The position numbers were made by a program, and so were the translations under genes. Below, piece by piece: positions 44,027 to 51,635 of a stretch of DNA of 64,000 nt. The stretch is from Chloroflexota bacterium (GTDB lineage: Bacteria > Chloroflexota > Anaerolineae > UBA4142). The first letter of the stretch is position 1. Every line of letters begins with the position of its first letter. The notes below the pieces were generated by a model that saw nothing but the letters and a program-made list of their open reading frames with translations, made no database searches and had not been told where the DNA came from. The stretch covers positions 1,729 to 65,728 of the forward strand of contig JACRPR010000036.1 in NCBI GenBank assembly GCA_016223105.1. Direction: 5' to 3'.

Positions 44027-44052
44027 AGATTCCTCTGTTTTGAAGACTGCGC

Positions 44053-44158
44053 GCATCCTTCGACTCCGCTCAGGATGCGGAAGGTAGCGAATCCTGAAGC
44101 GAAGTCGAAGGATGCGGCTCGCGGAATATACCGCACCCTACGACTCCGCTCAGGATGC
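44053..44158. repeat. Repeat family 5 (GCATCCTTCGACTCCGCTCAGGATGC units, direct and inverted)
   Basis: Units at 44053-44078, 44096-44115 (inverted) and 44138-44158. Confidence 0.75.
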
Positions 44159-44812
44159 TTGGTCTTTACTCAACATCGCGATTGCCGCGCGCGTGCGCTC
44201 GGCGTCCGGCTGGGCGCGCAGTGCTTCAAAGATCGCGAGCGCGTGCGCGAACAAATCGCGCGCGGCGTCGCGCGTAGCGCGCGCGCGCGCCAGGTGCGCC
44301 AACTCGACGAGCGTGCGTCCGATCTGCCAACGCGTGCCCAGGTCGCGAAAAATTTCGAGCGCGCAATTCAAACGCGTTTCCGCTTCGCCGTGCTCGCCGG
44401 ACAACCGATGCGCGACGCCCCACGCGCGATGCGCGATCGCGAGGTAAAGTTTGTGTCCGTCGCGTTCCGCCAATTCTTCTAGCCGCGCGGCATACGCGCG
44501 GCACGCGGTGGCATCCTGGGTTTGCGCCGCCGCATCCGCGAGCATCATATACATATCGTGATCGTGCGCCATCGAACCGCGCTTGACCGGTTGCCCGGCT
44601 AACTTGAACGCTTGCTCAATTGTTTCAGTCACGAGAGCGAACTCGCCCTTTGCCTTTAACGGCAACGATCTTCAATAGTGTTGATTTCTCTGCCACTGAT
44701 CCGGTTGCCCGGACATTCCGATCATATAATCGTACGATTCCTGGGCATACGCCCGGGCTTGCTCTCGCTCGCCACGCAACGCGTGGACGGTCGCGCTGAG
44801 CGCGACAAAAAA
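44150..44812 (-). pseudogene. In-frame continuation (C-terminal TPR tail) of paralogue C, cut off by TGA 44813-44815 and a second TGA 44672-44674
   Basis: Same reading frame as 44813-47974. 46 sense codons (FFVALSATVHALRGEREQARAYAQESYDYMIGMSGQPDQWQRNQHY), then TGA, then the track ORF 44150-44665, whose end resembles the C-termini of the sister modules. Confidence 0.7.
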
Positions 44813-47800
44813 TCAGGTCTCGCCTACGCGCTCGCGCGTGTAACGGCGTTCCAGATCGCGCCACCGTGCTTCCGTCGTCAGCACTTCGTCCCAGCGATCC
44901 AAACGAAACAAGCAATGACTCTGAATCCCAATCGCATTCACCTGTTGATCAGTCGCTTGAATCCGCGCGGCGAGCGTTTCCGCTTCGGTCAAGTACGGCA
45001 GGGCTTGATCGTATTCGCCGAAATACATCAACGCGACGCCGACCCCGCGCAACGCGTCAATGCTTTCACGCGCGTCGTCAAAATTTCCGGCGCGACAGAG
45101 TTCCAAGCGCCGCGTCGCGACTTGCAAATGTTCGCGCAGTAAACTCCGCCCGTCGAACACATTCGCGAGCGCGCCCAATGCTTTCGACAACGCGACGCCG
45201 TCGTCGAGTTGCTCCGCCATTTGCACCGCGCGTTGCGCCAAGCGATGCGCGCTGTCCCAATCCGGCGGCGTTTGATTGCGCCACGCGTCCATCGAAAGCG
45301 CGACGAGCAATTGCACCGTTTCCGTGTGCGGCGGTTCGTTGCCATTCGTTACGATGTTTTCTTCGAGCCACGCGCGCGACTCATTGCGGATTTCGCTGAC
45401 CTGTTGATACGCCGTCGCGTCCACCGACCATTTCGCGTCGGTCGCGATTTGAACGATTTTGCGATGCAAACGCACCGCGATAATTTTATCGCTCGCGCCA
45501 TCGCGCGCGCGCGCGAGCGCTTGTTGATACAACGCGAGCGCTTGCGCGAAATCGCGCACGAGCCGATACACATCGCCCAGGTCTTCGAGCAAACCCAGTT
45601 GCAATTCAATTGCCGTTTCCGGCGCGATCAACGCGAGCGCCTTGCGTAAATTTTGAATCGCGTCGTCATACGCATACACCGCGACCGCTTGTTGCGCCGC
45701 GTGCCGCGCATACGTGATCGCCTTGTCGCGTTCGCCCGCTTGCGCGAAATGGTACGCCAGCAAACCGGCGAGTCCCTCCAAGCGATTCGGAAAAAGCATT
45801 TCCATCGCTTGACCGACGCGGCGATGAAACGCGCGGCGGCGTTTCAACAAAATCGTTTTGTAAACCGCTTCCTGGGTCAGCGGATTGCGAAACGCGTATT
45901 CGAGTTCCGGCACGCGCGCCGATTCGCGAATCATATCCAACCGAATCAACGTGCCGATGTGCTTGTCCAAATCCTGGCTCGCCTCATCCACAAGTTGCAG
46001 AACGCGCCGATAAAACGAGCGACCAATCACCGACGCGATTTGCAGTGTCGCGCGCGTTGATTCTTCGAGCCGATCCATACGCGCCGCGAGAAGCGATTGC
46101 AAATTATCTGGGATTTCAAAATCCGCGCCCGCGTTCGTCGCGCGCCAATAGCGGCGCGTGGTTCCATTCACGACGCGATCTTCGGACACGACCGCGCCGC
46201 TATCAATTAACGTTCGCACCACTTCTTCGATGAAAAATGGATTGCCGCCGGATTTTTCGAGAATGTTCGCGCGCAAACGATCCGGCAATTCGGCAACCGC
46301 GAGCAAGCGATTCAACAGTTCGTTGCTCTCCGCTTCCGAAAGCGGACGCAATGCGACTTCGGTATACCGATGCTGATACTCTTCGTCGGCAATGATTTTG
46401 ATTTGCCACGCGGGGGCTTGGCGTTCGGTTCGCAGAGCGCACAAAACGACGAGCGGAATTTCTTCGGTCAACGCGACCAGTTGCCGAAGCATCTCGACCG
46501 ACGCGGCATCGCACCAGTGCAGATCATCAAAAACCAGGACGGTCGGTTGATTCGCAAAGCGCGCGCGCATCCAATCGCGCACCGCTTCGCACAATTCGCG
46601 TTTGAACATTTCGCCGTCGAGCGGCGCATTTCCGTTTTGGCTCTCCAAGCCGAACAACGATTCGAAAAGTTGCAACGCGCGCGCGCGCCGATCCTCCGCT
46701 AAACATTCGACGAGCGCGCCGAGTTTCGCGCGCATCGCTTCGGGCGCGTCCTCCGCGCCGATGCCATTCACGCGCCGAATCAAACGCTGAATCAATCCGT
46801 ACGCCTGATTGGATTCGTACGAGAGTGTGAGCGTTTCGTGCCATTGCGCGTTCAGCCCTTCGAGACTTTTGAAAACCAGGAAGGTTTCGTGCAGTAATCG
46901 CGTCTTGCCCAAACCGGCTTCGCCCAACACACAAACGATTCGCCCCACCCCTTGTTTGAGATCGGTGATGACGCCGCGCAACGTAATCAATTCCGCATCC
47001 CGCCCCACCATCTCCGCGTGCAAACCTTCGATCCCGCGCATGCGGCTCGCGCTTTCTTTGCGCCCCAGGACGCGATACGCCGGCACAGGTTCGGTCTTGC
47101 CCTTGACCTCGATGCCGCCAAGATTTTCAAATTCAAAAAATGATTTGACCTGTTTGTGCGTATCGTGCGCGATTTGCACCGTGCCAGGCGCCGCGGTATG
47201 TTCCATCCGCGCGGCGAGATTGATCGCGTCGCCAAGCGCGAGATATTCCATGTGCATATCACTGCCGATGTTGCCAACAACGACAAGCCCGGTGTTGAGT
47301 CCGATTCGCATTTGAAAATCGGGAACGCGATTCTTGGCGCGCAGTTCGTTGCGATATTCGCCAATCTGTTTGAGGATGTCGAGCGCGGCGTTCACCGCGC
47401 GCACCGGGTCGTCCTCGTGCGTGATCGGCGCGCCGAAAAATGCAAGCACGCCGTCGCCAAGCAGTTGCGCGATCGTGCCTTCGTACCGATAGATCGCTTC
47501 GCTCACGCGGCGATGCGCGCCCGAAACAATTTCGCCCCACTCTTCGGGATCGAGTTTTTCCGCGAGCGCGGTCGAGCCAACAATGTCGCTGAACAACACG
47601 GTAACTTGTTTGCGCTCGCCGACCATATCGCCGCTCGCGCGCGCGGCGTCGAGTTTCGCGCGCAATTCTTCGGGAATGTACTGTTGCAGTTTCGATTCGG
47701 CTAAAACCGGAATCGGCGCGATCGCGATCGGCGCGCGCGGTTCGACACTGGGTTTGGGTGGCGGCGCGATCTCAACGCGCGGTAGCGCGCTGGGCGCGGT

Positions 47801-47974
47801 TTGCCAATACGCGCCGACCGAATCCACGAGACGCAGTCCGCAGTGATCGCAAAAAATCGCGGCGTCGGGTAACGCGACGTTGCAACGCGGACAGGTGTGG
47901 GCAAGCACAGCGCCACACTGTTTGCACACATTTGCTTGCTCGCGATTCGTCGTATTGCAATTTGAACAGATCAT
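44813..47974 (-). CDS. Double zinc ribbon / class III nucleotide cyclase / STAND (AAA_16-like) ATPase / TPR protein, paralogue C
   Basis: MICSNCNTTN..CKQCG..CPRCN..CDHCG; VTVLFSDIVGSTALAE, GTIAQLLGDGVLAFFG, GDAINLAARME; Walker A GEAGLGKTRL, Walker B VLVFDDLHWCD; FRNPLTQEAVY; TPR repeats. Confidence 0.88.
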   Translation of the reverse strand: MICSNCNTTNREQANVCKQCGAVLAHTCPRCNVALPDAAIFCDHCGLRLVDSVGAYWQTAPSALPRVEIAPPPKPSVEPRAPIAIAPIPVLAESKLQQYIPEELRAKLDAARASGDMVGERKQVTVLFSDIVGSTALAEKLDPEEWGEIVSGAHRRVSEAIYRYEGTIAQLLGDGVLAFFGAPITHEDDPVRAVNAALDILKQIGEYRNELRAKNRVPDFQMRIGLNTGLVVVGNIGSDMHMEYLALGDAINLAARMEHTAAPGTVQIAHDTHKQVKSFFEFENLGGIEVKGKTEPVPAYRVLGRKESASRMRGIEGLHAEMVGRDAELITLRGVITDLKQGVGRIVCVLGEAGLGKTRLLHETFLVFKSLEGLNAQWHETLTLSYESNQAYGLIQRLIRRVNGIGAEDAPEAMRAKLGALVECLAEDRRARALQLFESLFGLESQNGNAPLDGEMFKRELCEAVRDWMRARFANQPTVLVFDDLHWCDAASVEMLRQLVALTEEIPLVVLCALRTERQAPAWQIKIIADEEYQHRYTEVALRPLSEAESNELLNRLLAVAELPDRLRANILEKSGGNPFFIEEVVRTLIDSGAVVSEDRVVNGTTRRYWRATNAGADFEIPDNLQSLLAARMDRLEESTRATLQIASVIGRSFYRRVLQLVDEASQDLDKHIGTLIRLDMIRESARVPELEYAFRNPLTQEAVYKTILLKRRRAFHRRVGQAMEMLFPNRLEGLAGLLAYHFAQAGERDKAITYARHAAQQAVAVYAYDDAIQNLRKALALIAPETAIELQLGLLEDLGDVYRLVRDFAQALALYQQALARARDGASDKIIAVRLHRKIVQIATDAKWSVDATAYQQVSEIRNESRAWLEENIVTNGNEPPHTETVQLLVALSMDAWRNQTPPDWDSAHRLAQRAVQMAEQLDDGVALSKALGALANVFDGRSLLREHLQVATRRLELCRAGNFDDARESIDALRGVGVALMYFGEYDQALPYLTEAETLAARIQATDQQVNAIGIQSHCLFRLDRWDEVLTTEARWRDLERRYTRERVGET

Positions 47975-47981
47975 TCAAAAC

Positions 47982-49784
47982 TCAATTCGCATCTGCTAAA
48001 ATCATTCGGACCGCCGATTGTCCCAGGAAAGCGTCGCGCAATTCCGGCGGCGCGTGCGCCGCGATGTGCGCGACAATTTCGCGCGCTTGGTCACGCGCGG
48101 CGCGCGCGGACACAGCATCACCGCGCGCGGTTTCAACCGCGCTCAACACGGCGAGGATTTCCCACAACGAACGCCGCACACCCAGGTCGCGCGCGTCCTC
48201 GCGCGCCGCGATCAAACACGCGCGCGCGGCATCGAGATCATTCAGCGCGCGTAGCGCTTTGCCTTTGAGTAACAACACATCGAAAACAAACGGGCGCATT
48301 TTCAATTCGCGAATCCGCGCGAGGAGTCGGTCGGCAAGCGCGATGGCGCGCGCCGGCTCGCCGCGCGTGATCGCGATTTCGCCGTCCGCGAGCATCACAA
48401 AAATCGGCGAGAACCAGGTCAGGTCGTTCAGATCCAAACCGATGTACGCGCGCGCGACAATCGTTTCGGCTTGCGCGAGTTCGCCATTCAACAAATGCAA
48501 TTGCGCGAGCACACCCAAATGCCAGGATCGAAATCCAATGCTAATCGTTTGCTCGTGTGGAATGGCTTGAACAATCGCAATGCCTTGTTGGAGATCGCCG
48601 AGCAAACCAATCGCCCAACCCAACATTCCTTGCGCGACGTACATCGCGGCAATAAAACCGGATTGCTTGCCCACCTCCACGGCGTCGCGCAACGCGCGGA
48701 TGCCTTCGGTGATTTCGCCGGTTTCGAGCGCGAGATAACCCAGCGTCCAACGACTGTACGCTTGATTCCACAAATTGCCGATGGTGATGCTGATCTGATA
48801 CGCCTCGTCCGCGAACGCGCGCGCCGCCGAAAACTCGCCGAGGAAAAAACATCCTTCCGCCGAGGTCGCCAGGTTGTCGGCGAGCATCGGCAAGTTGTCG
48901 AGTTCGCGCCACAGCGCGCGCGCTTGCGTGATCGCCGCGCGACCTTCGTCCGCGCGTCCACGCGCGATATAATTGCGCGATAAATCGTGGAGCGCGTACG
49001 CCATTTGCTCGCGCGCATCAAGTTGGCGCGCGAGTGCGAGCGATTGTTCACCCAACGCGATGGCTTGATCAAAATTGCTTTGAAAATAATTGACGAGCAT
49101 CAGCGACCACAGCGTTTTCGCTTCGGCGGCCGGATCGTCCAACTCACGCGCCAACGCGAGCGCGCGCCCCAAAAGTTCTTGCGCCAATCCCAGGTCGTAG
49201 CGCGCGGTCGGCGTCGCGTGGAGTGTCGCGCGCGCCAGCAACGCGGCGAGTTCCAGCGCGCGCTGATTTTGCGCGCGCCCGCGCGTTTCCAGCTCCAGAT
49301 AATTCACGTCCGCGTCATCATAGCGCGCGCTCAACTCCAACACGCGCCCGCGTTTGAGATACACATTTTTTAACTGCGTCGCATCCTTCGACTCCGCTTC
49401 CTTCGACTTGCGCTCAGGACTCCGCTCAGGATGCGACCCGCTTTCAATCGCGCGCGCATAGTGCATTTCGGCTTCGGCGTGCGCGTACACGCGCGCCGCG
49501 ACATCGCCCGCGCGCAGAGCGTGCTCGAACGTTTTCGCGTCGTCGCCGGCTTCGCCATAATGTTGCGCGAGCAACGCGGCAAATTCGTCGAGGTGGTCGG
49601 CGACAAGTATTTCGAGCGATTGCGCGACGCGCAAATGAATCTCGCGCCGCGTCGTCCGCAAGAGCGATTGATAAATCGTCTCCTGCGTCAACGTGTGGCG
49701 AAATTGGTACGTCGCTTCAACGTCATTCAGTTGCCGTACCAGTTGCGCGCGTTCGAGTTGGGTCAATGTGGAATCGAGATACAT
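47982..49784 (-). CDS. Winged-helix-like + TPR module = C-terminal half of split paralogue B
   Basis: MYLDSTLTQLERAQLVRQL..YQFRHTLTQETIYQSLL continues exactly where 50007-51635 stops, relative to the intact paralogue. Stop lies 7 nt before the start of paralogue C. Confidence 0.75.
   Translation of the reverse strand: MYLDSTLTQLERAQLVRQLNDVEATYQFRHTLTQETIYQSLLRTTRREIHLRVAQSLEILVADHLDEFAALLAQHYGEAGDDAKTFEHALRAGDVAARVYAHAEAEMHYARAIESGSHPERSPERKSKEAESKDATQLKNVYLKRGRVLELSARYDDADVNYLELETRGRAQNQRALELAALLARATLHATPTARYDLGLAQELLGRALALARELDDPAAEAKTLWSLMLVNYFQSNFDQAIALGEQSLALARQLDAREQMAYALHDLSRNYIARGRADEGRAAITQARALWRELDNLPMLADNLATSAEGCFFLGEFSAARAFADEAYQISITIGNLWNQAYSRWTLGYLALETGEITEGIRALRDAVEVGKQSGFIAAMYVAQGMLGWAIGLLGDLQQGIAIVQAIPHEQTISIGFRSWHLGVLAQLHLLNGELAQAETIVARAYIGLDLNDLTWFSPIFVMLADGEIAITRGEPARAIALADRLLARIRELKMRPFVFDVLLLKGKALRALNDLDAARACLIAAREDARDLGVRRSLWEILAVLSAVETARGDAVSARAARDQAREIVAHIAAHAPPELRDAFLGQSAVRMILADAN
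49381..49434. repeat. Repeat family 5 inside the coding sequence of 47982-49784
   Basis: GCATCCTTCGACTCCGCTTCCTTCGACTTGCGCTCAGGACTCCGCTCAGGATGC. Encodes ..ERSPERKSKEAESKDAT.., a segment absent from paralogue D. Confidence 0.8.
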
Positions 49785-49795
49785 TTCAGATCATT

Positions 49796-49823
49796 GGTAA
49801 ATGGTAATTGCGAATTGCGAATG
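49796..49823. repeat. Heptamers GGTAAAT GGTAATT GCGAATT GCGAATG just upstream of the B C-terminal-half start
   Basis: Read directly from the sequence. Confidence 0.8.
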
Positions 49824-49869
49824 ACCGATTTTACTTCGCACAGTCACAAACTGCGGATTTGCCAGACTT

Positions 49870-49929
49870 GGATTCGACGCTTTAGCGGGTTGCTTGCCCC
49901 AGCCATCAACCGCGTAAACGCTCGACTCC
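49870..49929. repeat. Repeat family 3, inside the cassette that splits paralogue B
   Basis: GGATTCGACGCTTTAGCGGGT...ACCGCGTAAACGCTCGACTCC. Confidence 0.8.
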
Positions 49930-49958
49930 AAAAATTCCGCCCCCTGATTTTATTTCTT

Positions 49959-50010
49959 CACGCATCACGCATCACGCATCACGTTTTACGTTTTACGTTT
50001 TACGTTTCAC
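49959..50010. repeat. Tandem heptamers (CACGCAT)3 (CACGTTT)(TACGTTT)3, containing the stop of the B N-terminal half
   Basis: Read directly from the sequence. Confidence 0.9.
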
Positions 50011-51635
50011 CCCATCTGCTCCAACACTCGTTCGAGAACCTTCACTTGAAACTTGCGCCCGATCACCGCGGCGATTTGCAAAACGCGTTTCGCATCGTCC
50101 GGCAAACGATCAATGCGCGCGGTCAACACACCTTGCAAAGTGTCCGGGATTTCAATGTTTTGAATTTCGCGCGTAACGATCCACTCGCCGTTATCCGCGT
50201 GGCGCGCGATGCCGCCGCGATCAATCAACATTCGCAAAACTTCTTCGACGAAAAACGGATTGCCCTCGGCTTTGGCGAGAATCATCTTGCGTAAATTTTC
50301 CGGGAGCGCGTCAATCTCCAACAAATTGTTCACGAGTTGTTTGCTGTCCGAATCGGACAAGGGCGCGAGATGCAATTCGAGCGCGCCGACGCCGGTGATT
50401 TCGTGCGACTGCGCGATCAGTTTCCAGCCGGCGGCGTCTTTATCCGGGCGCGTGACAAACACAATCACCATCGGAACTTCGGACGCGATGGACAACACTT
50501 GCGCGCCCAGCTCGACCGAGGACGGATCCGCCCAATGCACATCTTCGCAAACAATGACGGTCGGTTGCGCGTGCGCGATAGCTTGCAAAAATTTTTTGTA
50601 GGCGGCGATGTATTTCGCTTGCAGAGCCGGACCGTCGAGATATTTGACGCGCGCCGCCATTTCCTCTTCGAGTTTCAAACCGAGCAAGTGTCCCAGGTAC
50701 GGATACACCTCTTTCATATCGCCGTCGAGTAATGCGTGCGTCGTTTGCGCGAGCGCGCGATGCGTTTCTTCTTCGGACGAACCGGCGGGCGCGTTAATCA
50801 GCGCGCGCAAAATATCGGTGCTGAGATGGTGCGCCATCGAAGACCCGTACGACAAACAGCGACCCTCGACCCAGCGAATCGGGCGTTCCGCATCCGCGAG
50901 CGCGGCTTTACGCCATTCCGCGACCAAACGCGATTTGCCCAACCCGGCTTCGCCGATAATCGCGGCAATCGAGCCGCGTCCCGCGCGCACATCCGCGATG
51001 ATTTGCAGGAGCGTCGCAAACTCGCGCGAGCGACCGACCATCGGCGAGGTCAAGCCCGCGATGCCGCGCGCGCGCACCGCGCCTTTACGTTCGCCGATCA
51101 CGCGATAAACCTGGATCGGTTCTGCTTTGCCCTTGACCGCGATTTTGCCCTTGTCTTCAAAATCAAATAAATTCGCGGCGAGCCGATGCGTGCTTTCGGA
51201 AATCAAAATCGTGTTCGCTTCCGCCGCGCTTTGCATACGCGCCGCAAGATTCACCGTGTCGCCAATCGCGAGATATTCCATATGCAAATCACTGCCGATA
51301 TTACCGACGACGACCAAGCCGGTATTCAACCCGATTCGCAGTTGAAAATTTTCGACGCGCTTTTTCGCGCGCAACTCGGATGCGTACGTTTCAATCGAAT
51401 CGAGAATCTCGCACGCCACACGAATCGCGCGTTCGGCGTCATCCTCGTGCGCGATCGGCGCGCCGAAAAACGCAAGCACGCCATCGCCAAGCAATTGCGC
51501 GATGGTGCCCTCATAGCGATAGACCGCTTCGCTCACGCACCGATGCGCGCCCGACACAATTTCGCGCCAATCTTCCGGGTCCATCTGTTCCGCGAGCGCG
51601 GTCGAGCCAACAATGTCGGTGAAGAGCGCGGTCAC
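50007..51635 (-). CDS. Class III cyclase + STAND ATPase module = N-terminal half of split paralogue B (track start is GTG inside the ancestral gene)
   Basis: ALFTDIVGSTALAE, GTIAQLLGDGVLAFFG, GDTVNLAARMQS; Walker A GEAGLGKSRL; VIVCEDVHWAD. Ends ..KVLERVLEQMG with its stop inside a heptamer array. Confidence 0.75.
   Translation of the reverse strand: MTALFTDIVGSTALAEQMDPEDWREIVSGAHRCVSEAVYRYEGTIAQLLGDGVLAFFGAPIAHEDDAERAIRVACEILDSIETYASELRAKKRVENFQLRIGLNTGLVVVGNIGSDLHMEYLAIGDTVNLAARMQSAAEANTILISESTHRLAANLFDFEDKGKIAVKGKAEPIQVYRVIGERKGAVRARGIAGLTSPMVGRSREFATLLQIIADVRAGRGSIAAIIGEAGLGKSRLVAEWRKAALADAERPIRWVEGRCLSYGSSMAHHLSTDILRALINAPAGSSEEETHRALAQTTHALLDGDMKEVYPYLGHLLGLKLEEEMAARVKYLDGPALQAKYIAAYKKFLQAIAHAQPTVIVCEDVHWADPSSVELGAQVLSIASEVPMVIVFVTRPDKDAAGWKLIAQSHEITGVGALELHLAPLSDSDSKQLVNNLLEIDALPENLRKMILAKAEGNPFFVEEVLRMLIDRGGIARHADNGEWIVTREIQNIEIPDTLQGVLTARIDRLPDDAKRVLQIAAVIGRKFQVKVLERVLEQMG

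Follow-up and report, generated by a model that had tools for sequence, protein, structure and literature searches.

The 64,000-nucleotide stretch analyzed here (the window), from a Chloroflexota bacterium of the class Anaerolineae (GenBank assembly GCA_016223105.1, contig JACRPR010000036.1), carries on its minus strand a gene for a large cyclase/STAND/TPR (tetratricopeptide repeat) protein whose reading frame holds two in-frame TGA codons (Table 1). These codons (44813–44815, site 1, and 44672–44674, site 2) are the only interruptions in the frame from 47974 to 44150, and its re-translation revealed no frameshift, as the first-pass annotation had stated for the part past the first stop. The open reading frame (ORF) 44813..47974 encodes 1053 amino acids (aa) and terminates at the first TGA. 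The two TGAs are separated by 46 sense codons (FFVALSATVHALRGEREQARAYAQESYDYMIGMSGQPDQWQRNQHY), and a further 173, including those for the peptide GEFALVTETIEQAFK, lead from the second TGA to the TGA at 44150–44152. Translated across both sites, the gene yields the predicted peptides VGET-U-FFVALSATVHALR (site 1) and NQHY-U-R (site 2). We conclude that both TGAs are very probably selenocysteine (Sec) codons of one intact 1274-residue signaling protein, because Sec pairs with Cys in homologues, conservation is specific to TGA, hairpins fitting the selenocysteine insertion sequence (SECIS) model follow both codons, purifying selection extends downstream, and the genome encodes a complete Sec machinery.

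Table 1. Features of the Sec-containing cyclase/STAND/TPR gene, in window positions.
Feature	Position	Strand	Details
Complete gene	44150..47974	-	ATG 47974, true stop TGA 44150-44152; predicted 1274-residue protein with U1054 and U1101 (translation)
Predicted Sec codon 1	44813..44815	-	UGA, residue 1054, motif RERVGET-U-FFVALSA
Predicted Sec codon 2	44672..44674	-	UGA, residue 1101, motif WQRNQ[FH]Y-U
Double zinc-ribbon domain, aa 3-46	47837..47968	-	Pfam DZR and Zn_Ribbon_1
Class III adenylate/guanylate cyclase catalytic domain, aa 121-295	47090..47614	-	Pfam PF00211, E = 6.8e-27
AAA_16 (STAND-type) P-loop ATPase domain, aa 322-510	46445..47011	-	Pfam PF13191, E = 3.8e-19
C-terminal TPR superhelix, aa 855-1274, containing both predicted Sec residues	44153..45412	-	AlphaFold2 model and Foldseek
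Proximal hairpin after Sec codon 1	44790..44806	-	GUCGCGC-UCA-GCGCGAC; predicted fold
Predicted SECIS 1	44770..44789, core 44772-44786	-	CCACGC-GUU-GCGUGG; loop GUU 32 nt past UGA
Proximal hairpin after Sec codon 2	44650..44665	-	UUGCC-GUUAAA-GGCAA; predicted fold
Predicted SECIS 2	44634..44649	-	AGGGCG-AGUU-CGCUCU in the window; loop AGUU 28 nt past UGA

Database homologues break off where the two TGAs lie. The read-through C-terminal part was used as query against 5.8 billion proteins, matches were re-aligned, and 119 homologues were compared. Truncation at exactly one of the two TGA residues was found in 116 of them: 28 of the 119 (60–84% identical) end exactly at query residue 1053 (q1053, …RERVGET) and 88 at q1100 (…WQRNQFY). 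Among homologues reading through site 1, 90/91 carry Cys (GET-C-FFVALSA), and at site 2 Cys is present in two of three (QFY-C-SSLPL), namely P0004 and P0005, the two orthologues that span the whole length. The sole exception to Cys is P0046, a SARP-type protein that is only distantly related (34% identity), in which Leu occupies site 1 and Trp site 2. At both sites, therefore, an in-frame UGA is paired with Cys in homologues, the classical signature used by SECIS-independent selenoprotein searches. Homologues align from residue 1 through the end of the 1274-aa protein, and the alignment with the Cys/Cys form P0004 (1267 aa) spans q1–1273. A tail-only search against 1.84 billion cluster representatives returned 189 relatives at E ≤ 1e-10, most of them stand-alone "proteins" of 120–210 aa that start 2–7 residues past the TGA, which indicates that gene callers routinely split this gene. 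A homologue truncated at the first TGA bears the NCBI name "AAA family ATPase".

Related loci show that the pattern is preserved at the codon level. We compared 21 loci from 21 other Chloroflexota/Anaerolineales genomes, with 53–68% protein identity. The codon at site 2 was TGA in all 21 species, whereas site 1 was TGA in 14 and TGT or TGC in 7; neither TAA nor TAG occurred at either site among them. By comparison, the genuine terminators of the orthologues were mixed (9 TGA, 7 TAG, 4 TAA). The recurrence of TGA or Cys codons at the same two positions in 21 other species puts the pattern far beyond chance. Past site 2 the frame remained open for 165–181 codons in each of the 20 loci reaching the end of the tail, and the match covered 309–320 of 320 query residues in 18/21 loci, the other three being incomplete. 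The ratio of nonsynonymous to synonymous substitution rates (dN/dS) was 0.0–0.5 in the inter-TGA segment and the tail, similar to the upstream part, and both segments are under purifying selection. The first-pass annotation had described the locus as a single ~3.8-kb frame whose protein runs on to 44150, and the orthologues support this. They now carry the argument, as the likeness of the tail to the C-terminus of the sister module 47982–49784, from which the extension had been deduced, proved to be generic TPR similarity (24% identity).

Mapped on the tree, site 1 has switched between Sec and Cys two or more times (best estimate, five), as is typical of Sec/Cys exchange. Site 2 almost invariably codes for Sec (TGA). 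The distribution of the subfamily is sparse, as only 5/301 sampled genomes of the class carry it, all five with TGA inside the gene. No conserved gene neighbor was common to the orthologues, and downstream genes were shared within one close clade only. The same-family orthologue at G281:C80:51105-52055 contains two TGAs and one TAA in its extended frame, and in L020:2201-3445 a TAA precedes site 2 by about 185 codons. Pseudogenisation, a local frameshift or an assembly error may lie behind these cases.

Each TGA is followed by two hairpins in tandem. The bacterial SECIS (bSECIS) model calls for an apical loop of 3–9 nt, a stem of 4–16 bp, a G in the first two loop positions, 16–37 nt between the UGA and the loop, and a minimum free energy ≤ −7.5 kcal/mol (PMC13188914). 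The first-pass annotation had noted a stem-loop shortly after each stop (44790–44806 and 44650–44665). Both are predicted folds, but the structures that fit the SECIS model are the second hairpins, at 44772–44786 and 44634–44649. At site 1, the proximal hairpin was rejected as a SECIS by itself, as it lies 13 nt from the UGA (too close) and its UCA loop lacks a G. One of its pairs shows a compensatory GC↔CG change (7 vs 6 sequences) brought about by two synonymous substitutions. The distal hairpin (−9.3 kcal/mol, stem of 6(+2) bp) falls within all limits of the model. Its core is invariant in 15/15 TGA-bearing sequences and 98.8% paired. By contrast, in 7/8 Cys-coding sequences (6 of the 7 loci, and L035) it is degraded to 4–5 of 6 pairs, and the loop G is absent in 6 of these 7. 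The predicted SECIS 1 hairpin thus decays where Cys replaces Sec. The orthologue L028 (TGT at site 1) is the well-supported sister of L029 (TGA) and keeps an intact SECIS 1 hairpin despite its Cys codon, which suggests a recent conversion, either Sec-to-Cys or Cys-to-Sec.

At site 2, pairing in the stem of the proximal hairpin reaches 93% over 21 distinct sequences, although this stem coincides with codons for conserved Leu-Pro and Ala. The distal hairpin, which can also be written (G)AGGGCG-AGUU-CGCCCU(C), likewise lies within all limits of the model, though narrowly on free energy, and has a 7-bp stem in most orthologues. Its core GCGAGUUCGC is invariant in 22/22 sequences, with covariation at the closing pair (GC in 8, CG in 6). 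Third-codon-position entropy over the SECIS 2 codons drops to 0.38 bits against a mean of 1.39, a collapse that reveals selection on the RNA itself. Overall, both distal hairpins are 94–98% paired, with compensatory changes at flanking pairs and cores that are invariant even at synonymous positions. A search of Rfam gave no match in 44500–44900 at E ≤ 10, a result that is uninformative; to our knowledge, Rfam holds no general bacterial SECIS model.

The first-pass annotation had proposed a search of the genome for selA, selB and selC, and this was positive. A tRNA-Sec with anticodon TCA lies on contig C191 (ARAGORN), and selB (341.8 bits) and selA (585 bits) were found together with selD (362.6 bits), all above curated NCBIfam cut-offs. 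Neither selB nor selA has a TGA inside its open frame. The selD gene (G000 contig C213:15470-16405, locus L012) has an in-frame TGA of its own (…AACAG-U-ASKL, a UxxK motif), followed by two tandem hairpins (+11..+29 and +30..+46) in a layout resembling that after both predicted Sec codons of the cyclase gene. The selD product of this genome thus appears to be a selenoprotein itself. Sec use seems nearly universal in these Chloroflexota, and more unannotated selenoproteins may be hidden in them.

The protein belongs to the cyclase/STAND/TPR class, with Guanylate_cyc, AAA_16 and TPR matches in that order, all Pfam matches lying above gathering scores. We modeled residues 855–1274 with AlphaFold2 from an alignment of 19 sequences, with Cys substituted for Sec. 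The model is an all-helical TPR superhelix (predicted local distance difference test (pLDDT) 91.3, predicted template modeling score (pTM) 0.89). In model numbering, Sec1054 is the first residue of helix 200–212 and Sec1101 lies within helix 242–254, the first helix of the next helix pair. The model thus puts the two Sec residues in successive helix pairs of the superhelix, each at or inside the first helix of its pair. Both are preceded by strongly conserved motifs (RERVGET-U and WQRNQ[FH]Y-U). His1174 is invariant, and Cys1021 and His1064 are almost so. Foldseek matched the model to generic TPR proteins only, including domain III of the STAND regulator MalT (PDB 1hz4). The whole C-terminal sensor is also common to this protein and P0046 (JGI metagenome, 1217 aa), which has a SARP/AAA_16/TPR architecture; the sensor module is apparently reused with other output domains, without the Sec/Cys pair.

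The gene discussed here is one of several paralogues in the window (paralogue C). Paralogues A, B, D and E gave no alignment at the two Sec/Cys sites. The sister paralogue B (47982–51635, minus strand) is one frame broken by a ~222-nt insert (about 49785–50006) that holds several stops of the TGA, TAA and TAG types. It represents a true disruption by a repeat cassette, unlike the predicted Sec codons of paralogue C. At the downstream end of the gene, repetitive extragenic palindromic (REP)-like repeats occupy 44052–44158, with CGCATCCTTCGACTCCGCTCAGGATGC in two direct copies and a 19-nt inverted pair, and the true stop TGA (44150–44152) falls within the repeat copy 44132–44158.

Other explanations of the two TGAs were weighed. 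Sequencing or assembly (consensus) error would draw on the state of the genome, a 250-contig draft, and on nothing further. Its probability is negligible, as 21 independent assemblies, covering different studies and species, have the identical codons, and more than 100 metagenome-derived proteins agree with them. The same conservation excludes, for practical purposes, both an error in the consensus and the very recent double nonsense mutation that the first-pass annotation had entertained. A pseudogene in the wider sense, or genuine stops with the 171-aa ORF 44150..44665 as a gene of its own, would agree with the way gene callers annotate the region, with the dozens of database clusters consisting of stand-alone ~160-aa tails, and with the 116 truncated proteins. 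We nevertheless consider it extremely improbable. The same TGAs stand at the same codons in species whose proteins have diverged to 53–68% identity, frameshifts and additional stops are absent, and downstream dN/dS stays under 1. Moreover, the Cys forms fuse the segments into one ORF, and the 46-codon middle piece has no start of its own. Orthologues and hairpins alike indicate that the TGAs are decoded rather than terminal, as the first-pass annotation had allowed; the mechanism it named, generic read-through, gives way to SECIS-directed Sec insertion. Selenium-independent read-through by a near-cognate or suppressor tRNA, for instance as Trp, would account for the conserved downstream frame and find an echo in the Trp that P0046 aligns at site 2. 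We judge it very unlikely. Trp had been put forward as the ancestral residue, but TGG, which was looked for in the orthologues, occurs at neither site; the alternative codon is always TGT or TGC, orthologues carry Cys at both sites, and Trp is confined to that distant relative. Hairpins with SECIS spacing and an invariant loop G follow the TGAs, the site-1 hairpin decays in Cys forms, and the genome has a dedicated tRNA-Sec (anticodon TCA) with selA, selB and selD. Reassignment of the stop codon (codes 4 and 25, UGA as Trp or Gly) was rejected, as this gene and 9/20 orthologues terminate at TGA and selA and selB are without internal TGA.

A further alternative accepts Sec insertion but takes it to be partial by design. 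Stops at UGA1054 and UGA1101 would release isoforms of 1053 and 1100 aa without the last TPR repeats, and the isoform ratio would report selenium supply, a translational selenium gauge feeding cyclic-nucleotide signaling. In general, two serial UGAs multiply any inefficiency of bacterial Sec insertion. Here the sensor domain contains both UGAs, with the cyclase and ATPase modules complete upstream of them, and Sec is nearly fixed at site 2 (TGA in 21/21 species) although Cys is one mutation away. The same pattern, however, would be expected of any selenoprotein that chemically requires Sec, and the conserved motifs (RERVGET-U and WQRNQFY-U) suggest that the folded protein has a functional site here rather than a simple gate. 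We therefore hold partial insertion by design to be rather unlikely. The corresponding selenium-gated switch, in which the full 1274-aa form would have a Sec-Sec (or Sec-Cys1021) redox/metal site and scarcity would give sensor-truncated cyclase-ATPases of different activity, is likewise a doubtful proposition.

Several points also weigh against Sec insertion at both sites. SECIS 2 of the window is weaker than that of most orthologues (6 bp including one G-U, −7.6 kcal/mol) and only just passes the −7.5 kcal/mol threshold, and the single DNA sequence with Cys at site 2 (L035) still forms 6/7 SECIS 2 pairs. The Sec machinery is widespread: selB is above the cut-off in 258/301 sampled genomes of the class (86%) and in 20/25 carrier genomes. 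Because selB is so common in the class, finding it alongside the gene has no discriminating power. Almost all selenoproteins are redox enzymes. The selenoprotein families compared offer no precedent for a Sec pair in a TPR sensor, and the function of this pair is pure inference. We also infer the actual insertion of selenium from sequence.

If both UGAs are Sec codons, the gene uses the canonical bacterial mechanism rather than a novel form of recoding. The coding-sequence SECIS hairpin located 28–32 nt downstream of each UGA would recruit SelB with Sec-tRNA(Sec). The ribosome would then yield a single 1274-residue product comprising the zinc ribbon, the class III cyclase, the AAA_16 (STAND) ATPase and the TPR sensor with Sec1054 and Sec1101. 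In STAND proteins, the sensor governs ATP-dependent oligomerization. We hypothesize that the Sec pair, each residue placed after its conserved motif, would form a redox- or metal/ligand-sensing site in the TPR sensor, and that this site may control STAND oligomerization and hence cyclase output.

The most immediate consequence concerns annotation. Residue 1053 or 1100 is where more than 100 database entries of this family break off, and the C-terminal tail accounts for dozens of ~160-aa "hypothetical proteins"; recognizing the Sec codons would repair all of them. The case also shows that many homologues breaking off at one exact position offer an inexpensive hint of undiscovered selenoproteins. 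The great majority of known prokaryotic selenoproteins are small redox enzymes. A large cyclase/STAND/TPR protein with two almost-fixed Sec residues in its sensor would, if confirmed, extend selenium use into signal perception. It would also provide a testable candidate for second-messenger signaling that responds to redox state, metals or selenium in Anaerolineae, which are abundant in sludge, sediments and soils. Should the selenium-gated switch hold, cyclic-nucleotide signaling would be wired directly to selenium or redox status, and the protein would be the first of a class of STAND selenoproteins with a regulatory, non-enzymatic role.

None of the 119 prokaryotic selenoprotein families in a 2026 catalogue has this domain family or these Sec motifs (PMC13188914, Table 1). 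The terms cyclase, TPR, tetratricopeptide and AAA are absent from that paper, from BSepDB (without its supplementary tables) and from the deep-Sep paper, and full-text literature searches gave no report of a Sec-containing cyclase, AAA or TPR protein. The Chloroflexota cyclase/STAND/TPR proteins are thus a predicted selenoprotein family that the 2026 catalogue does not list. The gene resembles bacterial selenoprotein genes (archetype E. coli fdhF; Zhang and Gladyshev bSECIS model as given in PMC13188914) in its UGAs aligned to Cys in homologues and in its stem-loops with a 3–4-nt apical loop, G then U in the first two loop positions and 28–32-nt spacing. The presence of selA, selB, selC and selD in the genome and the truncated database annotation are likewise shared with them. 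It differs in encoding a ~1270-aa signaling protein rather than a small redox enzyme, and in having two Sec residues at a distance of 47 positions, each served by a SECIS of its own, without a UxxC or CxxU motif. Multi-Sec entries of the same catalogue (e.g., the metal-binding double selenoprotein MbdU and the FmdB-family UxxU protein; PMC13188914, Table 1) likewise have more than one Sec per polypeptide and functions predicted only from Sec/Cys pairs and SECIS elements, but none has a cyclase, AAA_16 or TPR domain. With STAND ATPases bearing a C-terminal TPR sensor (MalT, and class III cyclase/AAA_16/TPR proteins), the protein shares the order of effector, P-loop nucleotide-binding oligomerization domain (NOD) and TPR sensor. 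The modeled sensor also matches MalT domain III (PDB 1hz4) among other TPR proteins. The class III cyclase/AAA_16/TPR members are annotated as "adenylate/guanylate cyclase domain-containing protein". Whereas known members of this group are without Sec, the sensor described here is predicted to contain a conserved Sec/Sec or Cys/Sec pair.

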